A stretch of DNA of 64,000 bases from a virus (lineage: Duplodnaviria; Caudoviricetes): the IMG/VR virus record IMGVR_UViG_3300028197_000002; one strand, given 5' to 3'. This document shows positions 5,070 through 62,076 of the stretch, piece after piece. Position 1 is the stretch's first letter, and each line of letters starts with the position of its first letter. The notes beneath the pieces were generated by a model. It made no database searches, was not told where the DNA came from, and saw only the letters and a list, made by a program, of their open reading frames with translations. Made by a program: the position numbers and the translations under genes.

Positions 5070-5167
5070 TATAAAATCTCCTTGTGAACAATTTTATATA
5101 GAGTATATATAAGTTTTTTTTCATTTTTTTCAACTATATAATTTAGTCGCAAAAGGAGATAAATTTA

Positions 5168-6892
5168 ATGAGATTCGCAGAATGGCTAATTTTTGAAGAT
5201 ATAAGAGAAGATTTTAATAATTGTCACTTTAAATTGCTACTTAAACAAGTAGATGAATTGTTCGAAAGAGCATTAAAAACCAAAGGATTTATTGAAGAAA
5301 ATGTGGATTTTGAAGTAATTCAAGAAGTTTGGCAATATCCCACATCAGTAGAAACAATATCTGAAAATTTAAGCGATTGCAACTGCCGAGCTTTAATGGC
5401 CAAAAGCACAATACCAGTAAATTGCTGCTCTCTCAAGTGCATAAAAGATCTAATGGTTCAGGTTAGATTAGGAGGAATTGAGGAAAGAAGAAAAGATATG
5501 GGGAATCTGCAGGTCCTGCACAACAAGCAAATCGAGGTAGCTGAGGAATTGGAGAAAGAACCAGAAAATCCCTTCCTCATAGAAGATTTAGAAGACGTAG
5601 CAAAAGAAAAAATTAAACTATTAATTAAGCTTGGTCATATTAGAAAAAGAGAAACATTCGTTCAAAACTTCTATCTTGATGAACTAAAAGATAGAGAAAA
5701 GAATCTAGAAGAGCTTAACAAAAGAACTATGAACGCCTTGGCAGAAAAAAACAATGAAGTTCCAGAGGAAATGAAAATATATTTAAATCCCAATGCAAAT
5801 AAAGACTTTGGAACATTTTTAATGAAAATGTTTGTAAAAGGAGATGACATAGATCGAGCAGGAGACATATTCCAAAATTTCGTAAAAAGATTGACATCAA
5901 AAAAAATAAAAAATGGAGAAGCAACTTGGAAAGATTTTGCTGGTCTTAAAGGAACTTTACAAGATCTTGAAGACTCTGAGTGTGACGATTCATCATTAGG
6001 ATCACCAAAATCAGTTGAAAAAGAAAGTCCAATATTAAACAGACTATCAAAATTTATGAAAGCAAATATTTCTAAGTCCGGGAGATCTGGAAGTGAAGAG
6101 TACGTTTCTCGAAAAGAAACTGTGACAAGCAGAACGGCAAAACAAGCAATTATAAATAATGACTTGGGAAGAACGAAAGCGAAAGGACAAATAAATTGGT
6201 CTAAAAAAGGATCTGAGAATTTGGGATTCTATCGGGATGCTTTAAACAGTTTGTTTAATGGAGAAGAAATAAATGTTGTTTCAAGAGAAGATAAACTTAG
6301 AAAAGAAATAGTAGAAGATATATTTTTCTCTAAAAGCACTAATAAAGACTTGTTTCCAATTAGACCGTCTAACAAAGAAAACATAAGTTTATCATTGGAA
6401 AGTTATTATGATTTTTTGAAAGCAAGTACAATTTCAAAAGTTGCAGAAGTTCCACGAACTGCACTTAAAAGTTCAAGCGAAGAAGAAGACACAGACGCAG
6501 CAATACTAAGTTCATTAAGAGGCAGATCTCAAAAAGACAATTCTGTTGGGAAGTCTGCTGACCCTCTTAAACAACTAATTGGCAAAGAAGAAATGGAAGT
6601 GGGAGAATTAGGAAAAATAAATCAACAACTAAAGAAAATGCTTTTGGGATCAGAAGAAGAAATGCAACAAGCTCTTTCTTTCTGCATCAAATATGGGTTA
6701 GACTGCAGAAATTTCAATAAAATTAATGTAAGCAAAGATGTGTTTAGAACAACAACAAAAGGAGATTCCTTAAAAGGTCTTCCTGTACAAGTTGTAGCGA
6801 ATCAACTCTCTGTAATGTTGAAAAAAGACATCCCTTATCAAAAAGCAAGAAATCTAACAATGGACGCCGAGGCCAAAATAAGAAGTTTATAA
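5168..6892 (+). CDS. 574-aa protein with CTS-like N-terminus and sigma70 region-4-like C-terminus
   Basis: MRFAEWLIFE; C-terminal CIKYGLD..LPVQVVANQL..IPYQKARNLTMDAEAKIR aligns by eye to RpoD [41 protein letters not shown] SD. Confidence 0.5.
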   Translation: MRFAEWLIFEDIREDFNNCHFKLLLKQVDELFERALKTKGFIEENVDFEVIQEVWQYPTSVETISENLSDCNCRALMAKSTIPVNCCSLKCIKDLMVQVRLGGIEERRKDMGNLQVLHNKQIEVAEELEKEPENPFLIEDLEDVAKEKIKLLIKLGHIRKRETFVQNFYLDELKDREKNLEELNKRTMNALAEKNNEVPEEMKIYLNPNANKDFGTFLMKMFVKGDDIDRAGDIFQNFVKRLTSKKIKNGEATWKDFAGLKGTLQDLEDSECDDSSLGSPKSVEKESPILNRLSKFMKANISKSGRSGSEEYVSRKETVTSRTAKQAIINNDLGRTKAKGQINWSKKGSENLGFYRDALNSLFNGEEINVVSREDKLRKEIVEDIFFSKSTNKDLFPIRPSNKENISLSLESYYDFLKASTISKVAEVPRTALKSSSEEEDTDAAILSSLRGRSQKDNSVGKSADPLKQLIGKEEMEVGELGKINQQLKKMLLGSEEEMQQALSFCIKYGLDCRNFNKINVSKDVFRTTTKGDSLKGLPVQVVANQLSVMLKKDIPYQKARNLTMDAEAKIRSL

Positions 6893-11383: not shown

Positions 11384-12340
11384 ATGAAGAATAGATTGAG
11401 CTTATTTCCATACGAAATGGAAAATGTGTTTTCTATTCAGGAGGTCAAGCAAAAAGCCAGTTGGGGAATCAACGCTTTAAACGTGCCTTCTGTTTGGAAG
11501 AAATCTAAAGGTAAGGGAATTCGAGTTGCGGTCTTAGATAGTGGCTGCGATTTGGACCATCCTGATTTAAAAAACAATTTGCTTCCCGGAGCTAATTTCA
11601 TTAATCCAAGAAAAAAACCTTGGGATGACAACAATCATGGCACGCACGTCTGTGGAATAATAGCAAGCGAAAACAATGATATAGGAGTAGTAGGAGTTGC
11701 ACCTGAGTGCAAGATCATTCCTATAAAAGTTTTAGACAATGCTGGAAACGGAAGTGAAAAAAGTGTTTGTGAGGGAATAAGATGGGCTGTAGACAAAGGA
11801 AAAGCAGATTTCATCTGCATGTCTTTAGGCGCTCCTAATCCTGTTTCTGGAGTAGAGAAAGCTTTAAAGTACGCAACTTCAAAAGGAGTCATTTCCTTTG
11901 TTGCTGCTGGAAATTCGGGGAAGACAAAAAAAGTTTTTTATCCTGCTAATTATCCTGAAACGATAGCGATTGGATCTATTGACGAAAACAAAAGAAGATC
12001 GCACTTCAGCAATACAGGACACAATTTAGATTTTATGGCTCCGGGCAATAAGATTTTATCCACCGTACCGGATGACTGGTACGCTGTCTTAAGTGGAACA
12101 AGCATGGCAACACCTTTTATGGTTGGCATTGCTGCTTTACTTTTGTCTTATTCAAGAGCTAATGGAAATAAAATGCGATTGAAAACCAAAGCAGATTATG
12201 TGAAGGTATTCAAGCAGCATACTTTTCCAATTAAAAACGAAAAAATGAAAAATAATAGATTTTATGAAGGTTTTGGAATAGTAGATCCCAAGAAGCTATT
12301 TCAAAACTTAAAATCTTTTATGTTGGAGCTAATGTTATAA
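11384..12340 (+). CDS. Subtilisin-like serine protease (S8)
   Basis: Catalytic triad motifs VLDSG, HGTHVCG, GTSMATP; oxyanion AAGN; no signal peptide. Confidence 0.95.
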   Translation: MKNRLSLFPYEMENVFSIQEVKQKASWGINALNVPSVWKKSKGKGIRVAVLDSGCDLDHPDLKNNLLPGANFINPRKKPWDDNNHGTHVCGIIASENNDIGVVGVAPECKIIPIKVLDNAGNGSEKSVCEGIRWAVDKGKADFICMSLGAPNPVSGVEKALKYATSKGVISFVAAGNSGKTKKVFYPANYPETIAIGSIDENKRRSHFSNTGHNLDFMAPGNKILSTVPDDWYAVLSGTSMATPFMVGIAALLLSYSRANGNKMRLKTKADYVKVFKQHTFPIKNEKMKNNRFYEGFGIVDPKKLFQNLKSFMLELML

Positions 12341-18413: not shown

Positions 18414-19004
18414 ATGAAAAATTTTTCAACATGGCTAGAAAATAAAAATTCTAATAAAAAAGAATTTGTCAAAAGTGTTATGGATAAGTATAGTAAAAAA
18501 CTTCCTGCTATTGATAGAGGAAGATACACAAATCTAGAAGACGAAGGCTTAGAAGGTCCTATAAGATTAAAAAGTGGCAAAGTAGTTTATTACGATACAA
18601 AAGCAGGCAAGTATTATGACAGAGATAGCGACATGTATATAAGTGATGAAGATTACATGGCTCATGAAAAAAGCGAATCAGTTGAACAAGCAAAAAAAAT
18701 AATAGCAGAAATAACAAGTATGGCTGACGTTCAAAAAACATTTAGACAAAATAGATTGGACTTAGGCGTAGTTGGTGCCGAAACTGTGCAGAGCATAATG
18801 CAGGGAATTCAACTAATGGCTTTGAAAGATACAGAAGACTTCATGTTCTTAATAAGAATGCTCAGAAATAAAATTAACGATCACGATCCAGCATTGGCAA
18901 AGGAAATATTGCAAGGCGCAAGAATAATGGCTAGTAGAGCGCAACAATCTGCAAAGAGGAAAGAAAAGCCCGGAATGCCAGCGGAAGACAATTCTGATCA
19001 GTAA
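18414..19004 (+). CDS. Hypothetical protein with CTS-like N-terminus
   Basis: MKNFSTWLE; GLEGPIRLKSGKVVYYDTKAGKYYDRDSD module. Confidence 0.7.
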   Translation: MKNFSTWLENKNSNKKEFVKSVMDKYSKKLPAIDRGRYTNLEDEGLEGPIRLKSGKVVYYDTKAGKYYDRDSDMYISDEDYMAHEKSESVEQAKKIIAEITSMADVQKTFRQNRLDLGVVGAETVQSIMQGIQLMALKDTEDFMFLIRMLRNKINDHDPALAKEILQGARIMASRAQQSAKRKEKPGMPAEDNSDQ

Positions 19005-44643: not shown

Positions 44644-45402
44644 TTAAAGCTCAGTTAAAATTTCATATCCGTCATCAACACATAATATTAAATGTTCATA
44701 TTGAGCAGACAATTTTCTATCTGTTGTTACCGCTGTCCAATTGTCTTCTAATATGACACAATCGGAGGTTCCTAAGTTTATCATAGGCTCAATTGTAAAT
44801 GTCATTCCCGGCATTATTTTAGGTCCAAAATTTTTAAATTTTTCATCTACATAATGACATATTTTTGGGTCTTCATGAAATTCAACTCCACACCCATGAC
44901 CCACAAAATTCTCTACAACAGAGTACCCTGTTCCTTTTGAAAAGCTTGTTATTGCATGGCCAATCATGTTGAAAGGAACGTTTGGACCAACGACTTCAAT
45001 TCCCTTTCGCAACGATTCTTTTGTGTGTTTTAAAAGATTTTGAGATTCTTCTGATATCTGGCCGACAGTATACATTTTGCTAGTGTCGCCAAAATAACCA
45101 TCTACTATGGTGGTTATATCTATATTTAAAATATCTCCTTCTTTAAGTATCTGTTCGTCAGAAGGAATTCCATGGCAAACGACTTCATTCACAGAAATAC
45201 AACTTTCAGCAGGATAGCCTCTATAGTTCAAAGTTGCAGCGACAGCATTATTTTTTTTTATAAATTTGGATATCTGTTCATTTACGAATCCTGTCGTCTC
45301 TCCTAGTTTTACAAATTGTTCAGCATGAACTAAACATTCAGCTGCTAATTTGCAACTTTTTTTAATTCCTTCAATCTGGCTTTTTGTTTTTATAGGTATC
45401 AT
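44644..45402 (-). CDS. map: Methionine aminopeptidase type I
   Basis: VCHGIP, NIDIT, DGYFGDTS, GHGCG..FHEDP, TIEPMIN, SAQYEH. Confidence 0.95.
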   Translation of the reverse strand: MIPIKTKSQIEGIKKSCKLAAECLVHAEQFVKLGETTGFVNEQISKFIKKNNAVAATLNYRGYPAESCISVNEVVCHGIPSDEQILKEGDILNIDITTIVDGYFGDTSKMYTVGQISEESQNLLKHTKESLRKGIEVVGPNVPFNMIGHAITSFSKGTGYSVVENFVGHGCGVEFHEDPKICHYVDEKFKNFGPKIMPGMTFTIEPMINLGTSDCVILEDNWTAVTTDRKLSAQYEHLILCVDDGYEILTEL

Positions 45403-45445: not shown

Positions 45446-46027
45446 TTATTTTAAATTAGAAATCTGTGGTATGTTTCTAGAGAACCTATCCCAATTCTGT
45501 TCCGCCCACTTTTTAAATTTAACTTCTGCGTTCTTTGGCCCAATTTCATTTGTTTTTCCAGTAGTTTGAAATTCTAATGCATGAGTGGCTTCATGAATAA
45601 TTGTGCTTGCTATTTCTAATATTGCTGCTTTCGAGTCTCTAAGTTCTTTTAAAATTTTATTGACGTTAACTTTTATTACATCTGAAGGTTGAATTTTTGA
45701 TACGTCTATATCTGGAAGATAATCTTTTAAAACTTGATTTGGAAGTTTTTCTAAATTTTGAAGAGCTTTTGGATCGTTCCCAAATTTAAGTCTTATTTTA
45801 GACAAAACATCATTTCCAATTAATTTTTTATTTTCGCCCGAGCTATAAAGGCCATAAACGGATGATGTCAAAGGAGCTATTGTGCTTATGTTTTTCAAAA
45901 GATTTCTATCATACATTCTTACAAGTTGCACTGCGTACTTAGCCTTGTCGTAAATCACATTGAGCTGTCGTTCATCTACTTGATCAGTACCAATCGTATT
46001 TTGTTCAAACCATTTTTTAAAATTCAT
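45446..46027 (-). CDS. CTS-like protein with HEXXH zinc-metallopeptidase motif
   Basis: MNFKKWFE; IIHEATHALE...NEIGPKNAE. Confidence 0.65.
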   Translation of the reverse strand: MNFKKWFEQNTIGTDQVDERQLNVIYDKAKYAVQLVRMYDRNLLKNISTIAPLTSSVYGLYSSGENKKLIGNDVLSKIRLKFGNDPKALQNLEKLPNQVLKDYLPDIDVSKIQPSDVIKVNVNKILKELRDSKAAILEIASTIIHEATHALEFQTTGKTNEIGPKNAEVKFKKWAEQNWDRFSRNIPQISNLK

Positions 46028-48023: not shown

Positions 48024-49082
48024 ATGAAATTTACAGAATGGCTAGCAGCAGAAGAAATGATAACTGAAGTTGACTGGAAAGATGATTTTGAAGATGTAAA
48101 AAAACAATGCGTAAATCCAAAAGATGCAGTAGAGTACTTAAATGCAGTAAGAAAAAATGCTAGTCGTCCATATGGGGACAGAGAAAAATTCCCAGCAAAC
48201 AAACCTTTTGTTCATGCAAAATCTTCTTTCTTTAAGAAAGGAGAAGAAGAGGTAGATATAGATTATTTTATAGATCAAATAACAAAACCTCCAAAAACCG
48301 TTGTTAATACAAATGAAAAAATATTAAAAAGTGGTGGTCCAAATGAATTTGTTTACAAAACTGGAATTCCGGCATTTAGAGGAATAGCCTATGACAAAGA
48401 CAAAGGTGAATTTGTTTACATAAACACCTGTCCCGGAGCAGGAGGTTGTGTTCTTGTGTGTTATGCAAGAAGAGGAAGATACATCCAGTATCCAAATTCA
48501 TATGACAATATGACAAGGCGACTAAATCTTCTTTTGAACGATCCAGAAGAATATGAAAATAGATTATACAAAGAACTCAAATCAAAAGCAGAAGAACACA
48601 AGGCCCTTGAAGGATACAAACCAAAAATCATACTGCGATGGAATGACTCCGGCGATTTTTTTACAAAAAAATACGTAAAGATTGCAGAAGACGTAATTAA
48701 AAAGTTGAATAAAAACAAATACAATGTCGAAAGTTATGCCTACACAAAAACGCCTGATATAAAGCCTGACAAGTCGGTGCAAACAACCGTGTCACTTCAA
48801 CCAAATAAATCAATTTCAAAAGAAGATCAAAAAGTTTCTTTGATTGTTCCCAAAGAATTATTCAAAGGCCTTGACTTTTTAAAAGTAAAAGATGAAGAAA
48901 AATTAAAGGATAATATCTCTGATCATTTTAAATTACCAAAATCTAAAATTTTAACTTATGAAGAAATGAAAAACACTCCAGAAGGAAAAGGTTTAAAATG
49001 GAATGTCATTGTAACTCCAAATGATGGAGATGATGCAGCGTTCAGAAAAGACGTGAAAAGAATTTTACTGACTCAGCACTAA
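48024..49082 (+). CDS. GP88-family protein (Fe-S/radical-SAM-like) with CTS-like N-terminus
   Basis: MKFTEWLAAEE; TCPGAGGCVLVCYARRGRY; LRWNDSGDFF; YAYTK. Confidence 0.75.
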   Translation: MKFTEWLAAEEMITEVDWKDDFEDVKKQCVNPKDAVEYLNAVRKNASRPYGDREKFPANKPFVHAKSSFFKKGEEEVDIDYFIDQITKPPKTVVNTNEKILKSGGPNEFVYKTGIPAFRGIAYDKDKGEFVYINTCPGAGGCVLVCYARRGRYIQYPNSYDNMTRRLNLLLNDPEEYENRLYKELKSKAEEHKALEGYKPKIILRWNDSGDFFTKKYVKIAEDVIKKLNKNKYNVESYAYTKTPDIKPDKSVQTTVSLQPNKSISKEDQKVSLIVPKELFKGLDFLKVKDEEKLKDNISDHFKLPKSKILTYEEMKNTPEGKGLKWNVIVTPNDGDDAAFRKDVKRILLTQH

Positions 49083-52854: not shown

Positions 52855-53658
52855 ATGAGAACATTTAAAGAATGGATAGAAAAAAGACAAGATATTTTTG
52901 GCTTTGAAAAAGAGCAAGAAGAAGACTCGTCGTTTGCCGTAAAAAATCAAGATCCAATTATGCAAGTTGATATTGAGCATATTATGGATGAATTGGCAAA
53001 CACTAAAATCCATGGAAAAAGAGGCAAAATTCCTTATATTAATGAAATACACTGGGGTGACGAAATTGGCTCTTTAAAATTATTGCTAAGTCCCGCTGGT
53101 TCTGGCAAAGCAATAATATCTGGAAAGCAAACTGATCTTGAAAATAAAGATTGTTGGATTTGCAAATCAATAATTCCATATGTGAATCTAGAAGATGCTT
53201 CATTTAGAGATGATGAAAACCTCGCTGATATACTGTATAATAAAATAGATGAAATTGGACCTATAGAAATACCTAAAGCAGAATATTTAAATTTAGAAAA
53301 ACTAACAATTAAGCTTTCTAGAAAATGTTGCAAGCCTGACGTTATACCTAAAATTTTTATATACACAGGAATAAGAGAAGTAGTTAAAGATAAAAATTAT
53401 ATAATAAAATTTGAATGCAAAGGACAAGGAGCAGAGGCTCCGGGAGAAGGTGGAGGAAATAGACTTGAAATGTTTGCCATAGAAACATCTTATAATGATA
53501 AAACTGGTTTGATTAGATGCATGGGTTATGGAGTAACCTCTCCCATGAAAGGCCATAAATGGGAACCACAGCCATCTGATTGGGATGAATATTTTTCTCC
53601 AAAGCAAAAATCAGATGAAATTTGTGAAGCAATTGCCAACGCTTTAAGTATTTTTTGA
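52855..53658 (+). CDS. Hypothetical protein with CTS-like N-terminus
   Basis: MRTFKEWIE; TATACT-N5-ATG. Confidence 0.7.
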   Translation: MRTFKEWIEKRQDIFGFEKEQEEDSSFAVKNQDPIMQVDIEHIMDELANTKIHGKRGKIPYINEIHWGDEIGSLKLLLSPAGSGKAIISGKQTDLENKDCWICKSIIPYVNLEDASFRDDENLADILYNKIDEIGPIEIPKAEYLNLEKLTIKLSRKCCKPDVIPKIFIYTGIREVVKDKNYIIKFECKGQGAEAPGEGGGNRLEMFAIETSYNDKTGLIRCMGYGVTSPMKGHKWEPQPSDWDEYFSPKQKSDEICEAIANALSIF

Positions 53659-59986: not shown

Positions 59987-60235
59987 ATGAACAAAAAACA
60001 TAGACGACATATAAAGAGGTTGGCATCTAAGTATGATATTACTTTGTTTGAAGCAATTAAATTATTTTATGGAGAAAAAGAATCTATAAATAAAAATGTT
60101 GTTTATTCGATTTATAAAAAAAGGAATAAAGGCAAGGTTGGAAAATTCAAAAGCACTAAAAAGAAAAAACGAACAAAAGTGAAAAAACAAGTGTTATCAA
60201 AGCTCTCTCAATCTGATATTATAAATTCATGTTAA
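59987..60235 (+). CDS. Small basic protein
   Basis: 82 aa, Lys/Arg-rich, overlaps the polA start. Confidence 0.55.
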   Translation: MNKKHRRHIKRLASKYDITLFEAIKLFYGEKESINKNVVYSIYKKRNKGKVGKFKSTKKKKRTKVKKQVLSKLSQSDIINSC

Positions 60236-61518
60236 ACATTGCCGAAATATTAGATTCTGTTGGTCCAGACGTGTTTTTTCATTTTGATGAAGCTCACATT
60301 GACTGGACATCAGAGAAAAAAGCCAGTTTGATCATACAGTCTAACGGTAAAAAGTCATGTATTGAGTTAGTTGATCCCAAAGTTATAGAGGAGATGGCAG
60401 CTAGTATCCCTTATTATTTTAAAGATTGTAATTTATATTCTTGGAATCTGAAAAATTTAATATCTTTTTTCAAAAAGAAAACATCTTTAAATTTGAAATT
60501 TGAAAATGACATTTACGATCTCTATATTTTGTGTTCTTATTTTTCTTTAGGTTTAAAAAAGCCAAAGAGGACTCAAGATGCAGCGTTAATTGTAAATCAT
60601 TTAAAACAAACTGATATCTGGGATAAGTTTTTAATATTTTATAAAAAAATATATACGCCTTTAATTCAAAGAGTCATTCCCGACATAGAAACAGACCCTT
60701 TAGTGAATTTAAAAACCAAGAGTTTTTCAAATTGTTATTATGAGCTTGAAGGCCAAGCGAATGGGAGGATGAAAACTTTAAAGTTATCGAATAATAGCTA
60801 TATGCCCCATAGCATGTCTGATGATGATAAAAATAACATAGCGCTCCCAGACCCAGACGATGTCTTTTTGGTATTTGACTACAAACATATGGAGGTAAGT
60901 GTTCTTGAATGGCTTTCTAAAGATAAGGGTTTGTCTGAGATACTTTCTGAGGATCGAGATCTTTATAGCGCTGTTTGGGAGTATTTAACAAAAACTGATG
61001 CGGATGAGTCTCAAAGAAGTCTCTGCAAGAAGATATTACTTCCAGTTGTTTTTGGCCTAGGGCCAAAAAGCTTGTCAAAAAAACTTGGGTTGAGCGAAAA
61101 AAACGCCTCTAAGTTGATATATAAATTGGTCGATACATTCCCCGTTGCTTTTTCTTGGGTTGAGTCTCAACGAGTCGATAGCAACAACTTTGCCACAGAT
61201 TTTTTTGGTAGACGTAGAAAATTCTCAGAAAATGAATTCTATAAAATTAGAAATTTTTGTGTGCAATCCCCTTCTAATATGATTTGTTTAAAAAAACTTG
61301 TAGATCTACACGATTCGCTAATTGATGCGAAATTACGATTTCATGTTCACGATGGCTATGTTATTTCGTGCAATAAAAGAGAAATTAAAAATGTTTATAA
61401 AAACGCTAAATTAGTTTTAGAAAAAGATGATGAAATGTTTCTAAATTTAAAGTTAAAAGTTTCTTGCAAATATGGTAAAAAGTTAAACAATCTATTTAAT
61501 ATAAACGAGGTCATTTAA
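60229..61518 (+). CDS. Minimal family A DNA polymerase (polymerase domain, degenerate exonuclease)
   Basis: NGRM, motif A FDYKHME, motif B QRSLCKKILLPVVFG, FFGRRR, NFCVQS, motif C HVHDG. Confidence 0.88.
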   Translation: MLNIAEILDSVGPDVFFHFDEAHIDWTSEKKASLIIQSNGKKSCIELVDPKVIEEMAASIPYYFKDCNLYSWNLKNLISFFKKKTSLNLKFENDIYDLYILCSYFSLGLKKPKRTQDAALIVNHLKQTDIWDKFLIFYKKIYTPLIQRVIPDIETDPLVNLKTKSFSNCYYELEGQANGRMKTLKLSNNSYMPHSMSDDDKNNIALPDPDDVFLVFDYKHMEVSVLEWLSKDKGLSEILSEDRDLYSAVWEYLTKTDADESQRSLCKKILLPVVFGLGPKSLSKKLGLSEKNASKLIYKLVDTFPVAFSWVESQRVDSNNFATDFFGRRRKFSENEFYKIRNFCVQSPSNMICLKKLVDLHDSLIDAKLRFHVHDGYVISCNKREIKNVYKNAKLVLEKDDEMFLNLKLKVSCKYGKKLNNLFNINEVI

Positions 61519-62076
61519 ATGAAAGAAATTGTTCAGAAGTTTCCAGTCACAGGAAAGGAGTACGCAAATTTAGAAGAAAAATTTGGCGAATTGTGTGAAT
61601 ATCAAGCGTGGCAATTGCTTAAGAAAAACTCAAAAAACAATCACACTGATGGTCAAGAAGACATAGCTCAAGACATGCGGATAGCTTTGTTGAGATCCGC
61701 CTCTTATTACAAAAGGCAGTGCTACATAGAATCTTGCTTGAAAATTTGCGAAGAATACGCAAAAGATGACTTTATGAAGTCTATGCTGGATCAACTTAAA
61801 GATTTGTGGATAAACAAAACAAGACACGGAGCTAACCGGCAGAAGTTTGGAGAATATCAAGAGAACATTCTTGATAAAATGGTTAAATGTTTGGTGCCTA
61901 TTAAAAAAAGACCAAGCAAGAAAGAGCCTCTTTTGATGGACACTAAGTTTATAACCTATTGCAAAGCAATAACTTGGAATGCTCAAAAAGCTTTGGGAAA
62001 GAAGATAACAAGAGAAAAGACAATAAGAACAGGAATGGTTTCTTTATCTGAATATGATTATTTAGGTGGAAGTTAA
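61519..62076 (+). CDS. Sigma70 region-2-like protein
   Basis: EDIAQDMRIALLRSA...KFITYCKAITWNA, with an insertion. Confidence 0.55.
   Translation: MKEIVQKFPVTGKEYANLEEKFGELCEYQAWQLLKKNSKNNHTDGQEDIAQDMRIALLRSASYYKRQCYIESCLKICEEYAKDDFMKSMLDQLKDLWINKTRHGANRQKFGEYQENILDKMVKCLVPIKKRPSKKEPLLMDTKFITYCKAITWNAQKALGKKITREKTIRTGMVSLSEYDYLGGS

Follow-up and report, generated by a model that had tools for sequence, protein, structure and literature searches.

A conserved protein of a distant T4-superfamily phage with a capsid-targeting-like N-terminus and a predicted sigma region 4-like C-terminal domain

T4-like phages are thought to begin infection on host sigma70 promoters, aided only by the injected enzyme Alt, which in T4 is a packaged ADP-ribosyltransferase acting on RNA polymerase. 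The T4 proteins gp33 and AsiA act at the beta-flap and sigma region 4, while phage N4 has a virion RNA polymerase; to our knowledge, none of these four is a head-carried helix-turn-helix of the sigma region 4 type. As for sigma factors, they are defined mainly by the sigma-2 domain, which is their best-conserved part. The T4 protease gp21 cuts after the sequence (L/I)-x-E. Two further kinds of described systems are relevant here, i.e., the capsid targeting sequence (CTS) of T4, MKTYQEFIAE (PMC8442874; see also PMC3012670), and the Ltr superfamily of phage late transcription activators, which includes RinA, ArpU, LtrA/Sigma70_r4 and LtrB/DUF1492 and in which LtrA, a sister family of RinA, has a reported similarity to sigma region 4 (PMC3753634). 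In this work, we analyzed a stretch of 64,000 nucleotides from the IMG/VR virus record IMGVR_UViG_3300028197_000002 (hereafter the window), and in particular its gene at positions 5168-6892 (+), the product of which begins with a CTS-like decapeptide and ends in a predicted sigma region 4-like domain.

We found that the open reading frame (ORF) at 5168-6892 is a real gene with an ATG start, encoding 574 aa followed by a stop codon; the protein has a mass of 65.5 kDa and a pI of 6.25. Translation confirmed both the 574-aa ORF starting with MRFAEWLIFE and every protein stretch quoted in an earlier reading of the letters (the sequence-only reading), which had proposed the product as a candidate virion-packaged, highly divergent sigma70-like factor. 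From that proposal, the CTS-like tag and the region 4-like C-terminal helix-turn-helix are retained, whereas the proposed regions 2 and 3.2 are unsupported, and the term itself overstates the case because no sigma-2 domain was found in any search. Our own reading, held tentatively and at somewhat less than an even chance, is that of a clade-specific, mostly helical protein which is packaged in the head and injected, and whose C-terminus is a DNA-binding domain of the sigma region 4 type. In broader terms, the protein is probably an injected transcription factor or DNA-binding factor. No match to the full 574-aa sequence was found in Pfam, in PHROG or, by tblastn, in isolated phage genomes; profile searches of PDB sequences with its family returned nothing relevant, and a feature search of the ESM Atlas gave no usable match. 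AlphaFold2 modeled the full-length protein poorly on the whole (pLDDT 59), but residues 476-574 well.

The N-terminal tag and the other window genes that carry a tag of the same pattern are the following:

5168..5197 (+): residues 1-10, MRFAEWLIFE, capsid-targeting-like tag ending in I-F-E, a T4 gp21-type (L/I)-x-E site
18414-19004 (+): tagged gene, 196 aa, MKNFSTWLE; no Pfam family, matches phrog_13298 of unknown function
48024-49082 (+): tagged gene, 352 aa, MKFTEWLAAEE; Pfam GP88 domain
52855-53658 (+): tagged gene, MRTFKEWIE; no Pfam family

When the pattern M-[KR]-x0-1-F-x1-2-W-[LI] was sought in the six-frame translation of the window, four occurrences were obtained against the 0.21 expected from codon shuffling, and all of them lie exactly at the starts of called genes (5168, 18414, 48024 and 52855). 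Beyond the tag, the four proteins show no similarity to one another. The decapeptide is nearly invariant (R2K and E5Q are the only changes) across homologs that are 45-91% identical overall, and distant members of the family (P0010, P0011 and P0014) keep similar starts, i.e., MKFNDWLFLEE, MTGFKEWIEE and MFCFKEWLQ. The CTS-like N-terminus is thus a real and recurrent motif. It shares with the T4 CTS the length of ten residues, a basic residue 2, aromatic or hydrophobic positions 6-8 and a final I-x-E, as well as its occurrence on otherwise unrelated proteins of one T4-superfamily phage. Yet, only three of the ten residues are identical, with Trp replacing Phe, and the CTS cargo of T4 is small and basic, whereas the candidate cargo described here is a 65-kDa, near-neutral, multidomain protein. 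It is from this tag that we infer packaging in the virion, and the three other tagged proteins of the window can be regarded as further candidates for head cargo.

At the opposite end of the protein, the following elements were delimited:

6563..6694 (+): residues 466-509, two helices matching sigma region 4.1 by structure search and hhalign
6707..6775 (+): residues 514-536, variable insertion of ~23 residues between the 4.1-like helix and the helix-turn-helix, low pLDDT
6776..6889 (+): residues 537-574, helix-turn-helix aligned to sigma region 4.2, pLDDT 90-95

Residues 462-574, which are basic (pI 9.3), were folded alone by AlphaFold2 from an 11-sequence family alignment and with no templates, and the resulting model (pLDDT 76, pTM 0.69) consists of four main helices plus the insertion, which is disordered in the model and differs in length among homologs. 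When this model was aligned exhaustively by VIA-align to all 48,161 representative chains, 26 of the 27 highest-ranked rows proved to be sigma region 4 domains. The best match was E. coli SigmaE region 4 on -35 DNA (2h27_D; Z 7.4, rmsd 1.6 Å, 63/69 residues), followed by region 4 of AlgU (Z 7.3), SigL (6.6) and SigC (6.6), and also of SigH, BldN, HrdB and SigF, while LuxR-type and other helix-turn-helix domains reached Z values below 5 only. The region 4 matches were reproduced with the full-length model. We would place the weight of this result on how uniformly the best rows belong to one family, and on the near-complete coverage of a small target domain.

Comparison of sequence profiles by hhalign brought the helix-turn-helix into register with sigma region 4.2. 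Against RpoE, the family profile set residues 534-574 on the region 4.2 helix-turn-helix. The same placement resulted when five E. coli region 4 sequences were combined into one profile, with a score of 20.4 (P 0.005, probability 7%), compared with 8.9 +/- 1.7 and a maximum of 17.1 in 200 column-shuffled controls. With full-length sigma factors, the sole significant alignment spanned regions 4.1 and 4.2 over 68 columns. The by-eye alignment to region 4 put forward in the sequence-only reading, GLPVQVVANQL...YQKARNLTMDAEAKI, is in agreement with the hhalign comparisons and with VIA-align. Taken at the level of predicted structure, a sigma region 4-like fold for residues 462-574 is supported, with sequence-profile support that is weak but consistent. 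SigmaE (2h27) and Pseudomonas aeruginosa AlgU (8z6g) have the same four-helix arrangement with a C-terminal helix-turn-helix, and in sigma region 4 a first helix of the form GL-x-x-E/V-x-A and a basic recognition helix occupy the same register as in the 574-aa protein. In the latter, the 4.1-like helices end in the family signature A-L-x-F-C-I-K-Y-G-L-x-C, of which L503, C506, G510 and C513 are invariant in 8/8 aligned members, the most distant one included. Residues 537-574 comprise a GL-x-V-x-x-V-A motif and then the recognition helix, opened by Q558, K559, A560 and R561, which are invariant in the eight close relatives and tandem paralogs aligned.

Several observations weigh against the interpretation of the protein as a packaged factor with a sigma region 4-type domain. 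The VIA-align Z of 7.4 falls within the range (7-8) that the tool calls middling, and Foldseek, run with the C-terminal model on PDB, BFVD, AFDB clusters and Swiss-Prot, returned no significant match, probably because of the long insertion (514-536) and the long first helix. Sequence searches of Pfam, PDB and PHROG provide no link from the protein to sigma factors; in Pfam, neither Sigma70_r4 nor r4_2 was matched at E up to 10 by the full protein or by 11 isolated C-terminal domains. The insertion and the two invariant cysteines (C506 and C513) are features foreign to sigma region 4, and the sequence match to that region is not significant. As for the N-terminus, the three other tagged window proteins do not have a strict (L/I)-x-E end. 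The whole protein is near neutral, whereas T4 internal proteins are basic, and the argument for its putative packaging comes from the tag.

The shape search of the ESM Atlas with the C-terminal model listed RinA-family phage late activators first (TM 0.54), and then DUF1492 and WhiA helix-turn-helix clusters. Such proximity would be in line with an unpackaged intracellular activator resembling RinA and other Ltr proteins, or with a different DNA-binding regulator of the sigma-4 type, that is synthesized once infection has begun and whose N-terminal motif serves some other purpose, all the more since phage activators based on sigma region 4 are documented (PMC3753634) and the packaging of the 574-aa protein is putative. 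We consider this unlikely, though the least so among the alternatives weighed here. The likeness to the Ltr superfamily is one of shape only, as no sequence membership in PF05263, PF07374 or ArpU was found in Pfam searches with the full protein and the isolated C-terminal domains. Ltr proteins are small, stand-alone proteins of temperate phages of Gram-positive bacteria and carry no capsid tag, whereas the 574-aa protein is three to four times their size, with ~460 additional residues upstream of the domain. Moreover, the unrelated proteins that share the motif have it at the N-terminus only, and it closely resembles the T4 CTS in length and in the final I-x-E.

Upstream of the C-terminal domain, one further segment is well defined in the full-length model:

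5423..5752 (+): residues 86-195, bundle of long helices, model pLDDT about 71-87

This segment bears on the question whether the protein could be a complete, extremely divergent sigma factor, with a sigma-2-like domain hidden in residues 86-420 that would bind the beta-prime clamp helices and read a -10 element, the protein thereby directing host RNA polymerase to phage promoters. As in sigma factors, the region 4-like domain does form the very end of the protein and follows a linker that is acidic and disordered; some VIA-align rows chain the bundle (residues 103-200) onto sigma-A from about position 95 in addition to region 4, and sigma70 chains make up 13/50 rows of the full-length Foldseek search. 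Yet, none of the latter is significant (E-values of 0.5-3), the two-block alignments to sigma-A have an rmsd of 17-30 Å with Z no higher than for region 4 alone, and the bundle (residues 100-202) is better matched by generic four-helix bundles, which are the only structures among its best matches. ECF sigma factors are also much smaller than the 574-aa protein, in which the upstream sigma-2 goes undetected. We therefore judge a complete sigma factor to be improbable, a view that the sequence of the middle part reinforces. The region-2-like (214-303) and acidic region-3.2-like (438-450) stretches that the sequence-only reading had pointed out gave no Pfam, PDB or hhalign match and are no better than chance, despite sigma-2 being the best-conserved sigma domain, and hhalign comparison with RpoD, RpoE and the five-sigma alignment aligned nothing outside region 4. 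In the full-length model, residues 227-294, within the supposed region 2, and 421-476 have a pLDDT below 50. No sigma-2 signal was obtained by Pfam, PDB or hhalign, with residues 195-320 poorly modeled and the domains there not folded separately.

If the protein is indeed packaged and injected, its first ten residues would act like the T4 CTS and dock it on the scaffolding core, and the docked protein would become enclosed in the prohead. A gp21-type prohead protease would then remove the tag after Glu10, and the mature protein would enter the host together with the DNA. There, the basic residues 462-574, with their four-helix, region 4-type helix-turn-helix, would bind DNA via the conserved recognition helix, and they may also contact RNA polymerase. 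In this way, the injected protein could influence transcription as soon as infection begins. In a stronger version of this proposal, the CTS-loaded factor would re-aim host RNA polymerase, or displace sigma region 4 from the beta-flap, before any phage expression; we regard this version as speculative and unlikely, but it would represent the first virion-delivered sigma-like or sigma-mimicking factor. A complex prediction that paired the C-terminal domain with the beta-flap of E. coli (residues 831-1057) reached a score of 0.15, the mark being 0.32, and is no evidence either way. With Alt, gp33, AsiA and the N4 virion RNA polymerase, the protein would share a concept, i.e., a factor operating at or after DNA entry or at sigma-4/beta-flap, and no homology. 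A head-packaged DNA-binding protein of the region 4 type would, if true, add a new control over the first minutes of infection and extend the range of CTS cargo from small anti-restriction proteins to large regulators.

It is also conceivable that the domain is a mimic or decoy of sigma region 4 that occupies the beta-flap tip, or binds a host anti-sigma factor or activator, and displaces the host sigma region 4 in the manner of T4 gp33 and AsiA. The closest folds are sigma region 4 domains, including ones crystallized with anti-sigma factors and as flap chimeras, which would suit such a role. The conserved basic recognition helix, in turn, argues for retained DNA binding, and of all the explanations considered, we deem this one the least probable. 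As a milder option, the sequence-only reading had also named a sigma or anti-sigma mimic co-injected with the DNA, which may still apply.

To judge from sequence comparisons, the 574-aa protein founds a family that is so far unannotated and belongs to uncultured, T4-like jumbo phages; about a dozen metagenomic relatives have the gene. We identified seven full-length metagenomic relatives with 45-91% identity, while two distant members (P0010 and P0011) came to light in an exhaustive HMMER search and a fourth lineage, represented by P0014 on locus L009, in a metagenome scan. No relative was found among the IMG/VR viral contigs, and a profile word search gave no new members. The gene is conserved within a fixed neighborhood, the order of which is LAGLIDADG, NUDIX, DUF179, the tagged 574-aa gene, EamA, TPR-glycosyltransferase and S8 subtilase, and in L009, with ~25% identity, genes for S8 and LAGLIDADG are still close by. 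Gp23 (T4 major capsid family) and Peptidase_S77 (T4 prohead protease family) are both encoded on the contig of P0011, a distant member. Since the family is unannotated and its neighborhood is conserved in marine relatives as well as in very divergent metagenomic jumbo phages, the assignment of even a fold and a probable location should be useful for annotation.

In three relatives the gene is present as tandem paralogs:

L002:10001-11707 and L002:11768-13492: tandem paralogs
L001:1659-3326 and L001:3402-5126: tandem paralogs
L003:7091-8797 and L003:8858-10582: tandem paralogs

The paralogs are 45-52% identical to the window protein, and each is equipped with a promoter-like box and a Shine-Dalgarno sequence of its own. 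A single copy is present in the window and in L007, whereas L002 and L003, whose neighboring proteins are 77-99% identical to those of the window, possess two. In the more distant L001, the homolog is the most diverged protein of the neighborhood (51-52% identity vs 64-93%). Such shifts in copy number and the faster divergence in L001, expected of host-interaction genes, together with the CTS-like tag and the basic C-terminal domain, would suit a packaged internal head protein comparable to T4 IPI-IPIII, in which the helix-turn-helix does no more than bind the phage genome, to condense it, protect its ends or counter restriction, and has no role in transcription. On the other hand, basicity does not extend to the protein as a whole, and very divergent phages keep the gene in one and the same neighborhood. 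The QKAR recognition helix is invariant between paralogs, a pattern more in keeping with a fixed specific target than with an arms-race inhibitor. We thus rate a purely internal head protein as rather unlikely, slightly more so than a RinA/Ltr-like activator and slightly less so than a complete sigma factor.

Other features of these loci were recorded as well. The N-terminal half of the second copy in L001 is common to the first copy, which suggests gene conversion. A 179-aa LAGLIDADG_2 protein (754-1293, +; L009:8353-8916) and an S8 subtilase with no signal (11384-12340, +; L009:972-1904) stay near the gene even in the most divergent relative, and they seem to be a fixed part of the clade's gene content, as opposed to mobile or accessory genes. 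Within the 574-aa protein, residues 71-91 (5378-5443) contain a cysteine cluster of the form C-x-C ... CC-x3-C (C71, C73, C86, C87 and C91). It is invariant among close homologs and absent from the distant P0010 and P0011, and may represent a lineage-specific metal site.

The region preceding the gene contains the following elements:

5104..5158 (+): upstream region conserved in relatives, with AT-rich candidate promoter boxes and no -35 element
5104-5112 (+): distal box TATATATA(A), i.e. TATATATAA, candidate promoter box
5135-5142 (+): proximal box TATATAAT, TATAAT-like, candidate promoter box
5153-5158 (+): AAGGAG, a strong Shine-Dalgarno sequence directly before ORF 5168-6892

Among close relatives, the 98-nt divergent intergenic region hardly differs, and its conservation can still be recognized in L004; the duplicated second paralog retains the proximal box alone. 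In the window, we counted 19 copies of ATATATAA, compared with 5.4 expected, a count reached by 0/100 shuffles; copies are located, e.g., at 5105, 10663, 16222/16224, 24404, 46054, 47987 and 52839. Several of these closely precede genes that lie on the matching strand, one of which is the gp13-like neck gene. The T4 counterpart, TATAAATA, is present 15 times against 7.5 expected. It may be that ATATATAA is the -10-only (late-type) promoter of this clade and replaces TATAAATA of T4. The boxes upstream of the 574-aa gene, with no -35 element, fit such a T4-late-type, -10-only promoter and putative late expression. The promoter motif TAGTTTNYGGTA showed little or no enrichment in the window, where it was found six times with one mismatch allowed (2.6 expected; six reached in 2/100 shuffles).

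The window itself has ~32% G+C and no tRNA genes, and encodes a contractile-tail phage with a tail sheath, a gp15-like sheath stabilizer, neck/adaptor proteins and a baseplate hub; ribonucleotide reductase, SbcCD and a helicase are also present. Judging by its gp15-like, gp18-like and gp13-like proteins, we assign the phage to the T4 superfamily, as a distant member. For the sheath protein, the best tblastn match in any isolated phage shows 34% identity over 59% of the query. A 185-aa ORF at 61519-62076 (+), considered as a gp55-like candidate, had no Pfam or PHROG match. The gene at 60229-61518 (+) encodes a 429-aa protein with a family A DNA polymerase domain that covers the C-terminal part of the Pfam model only, and it may be part of a split polymerase gene; T4 itself has a family B polymerase. 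Finally, the 193-aa product of 45446-46027 (-) gave a sub-threshold Pfam match (E 8.5e-4) to the poxvirus VLTF3-like late transcription factor family, and its gene adjoins one encoding an M24 methionine aminopeptidase (44644-45402).

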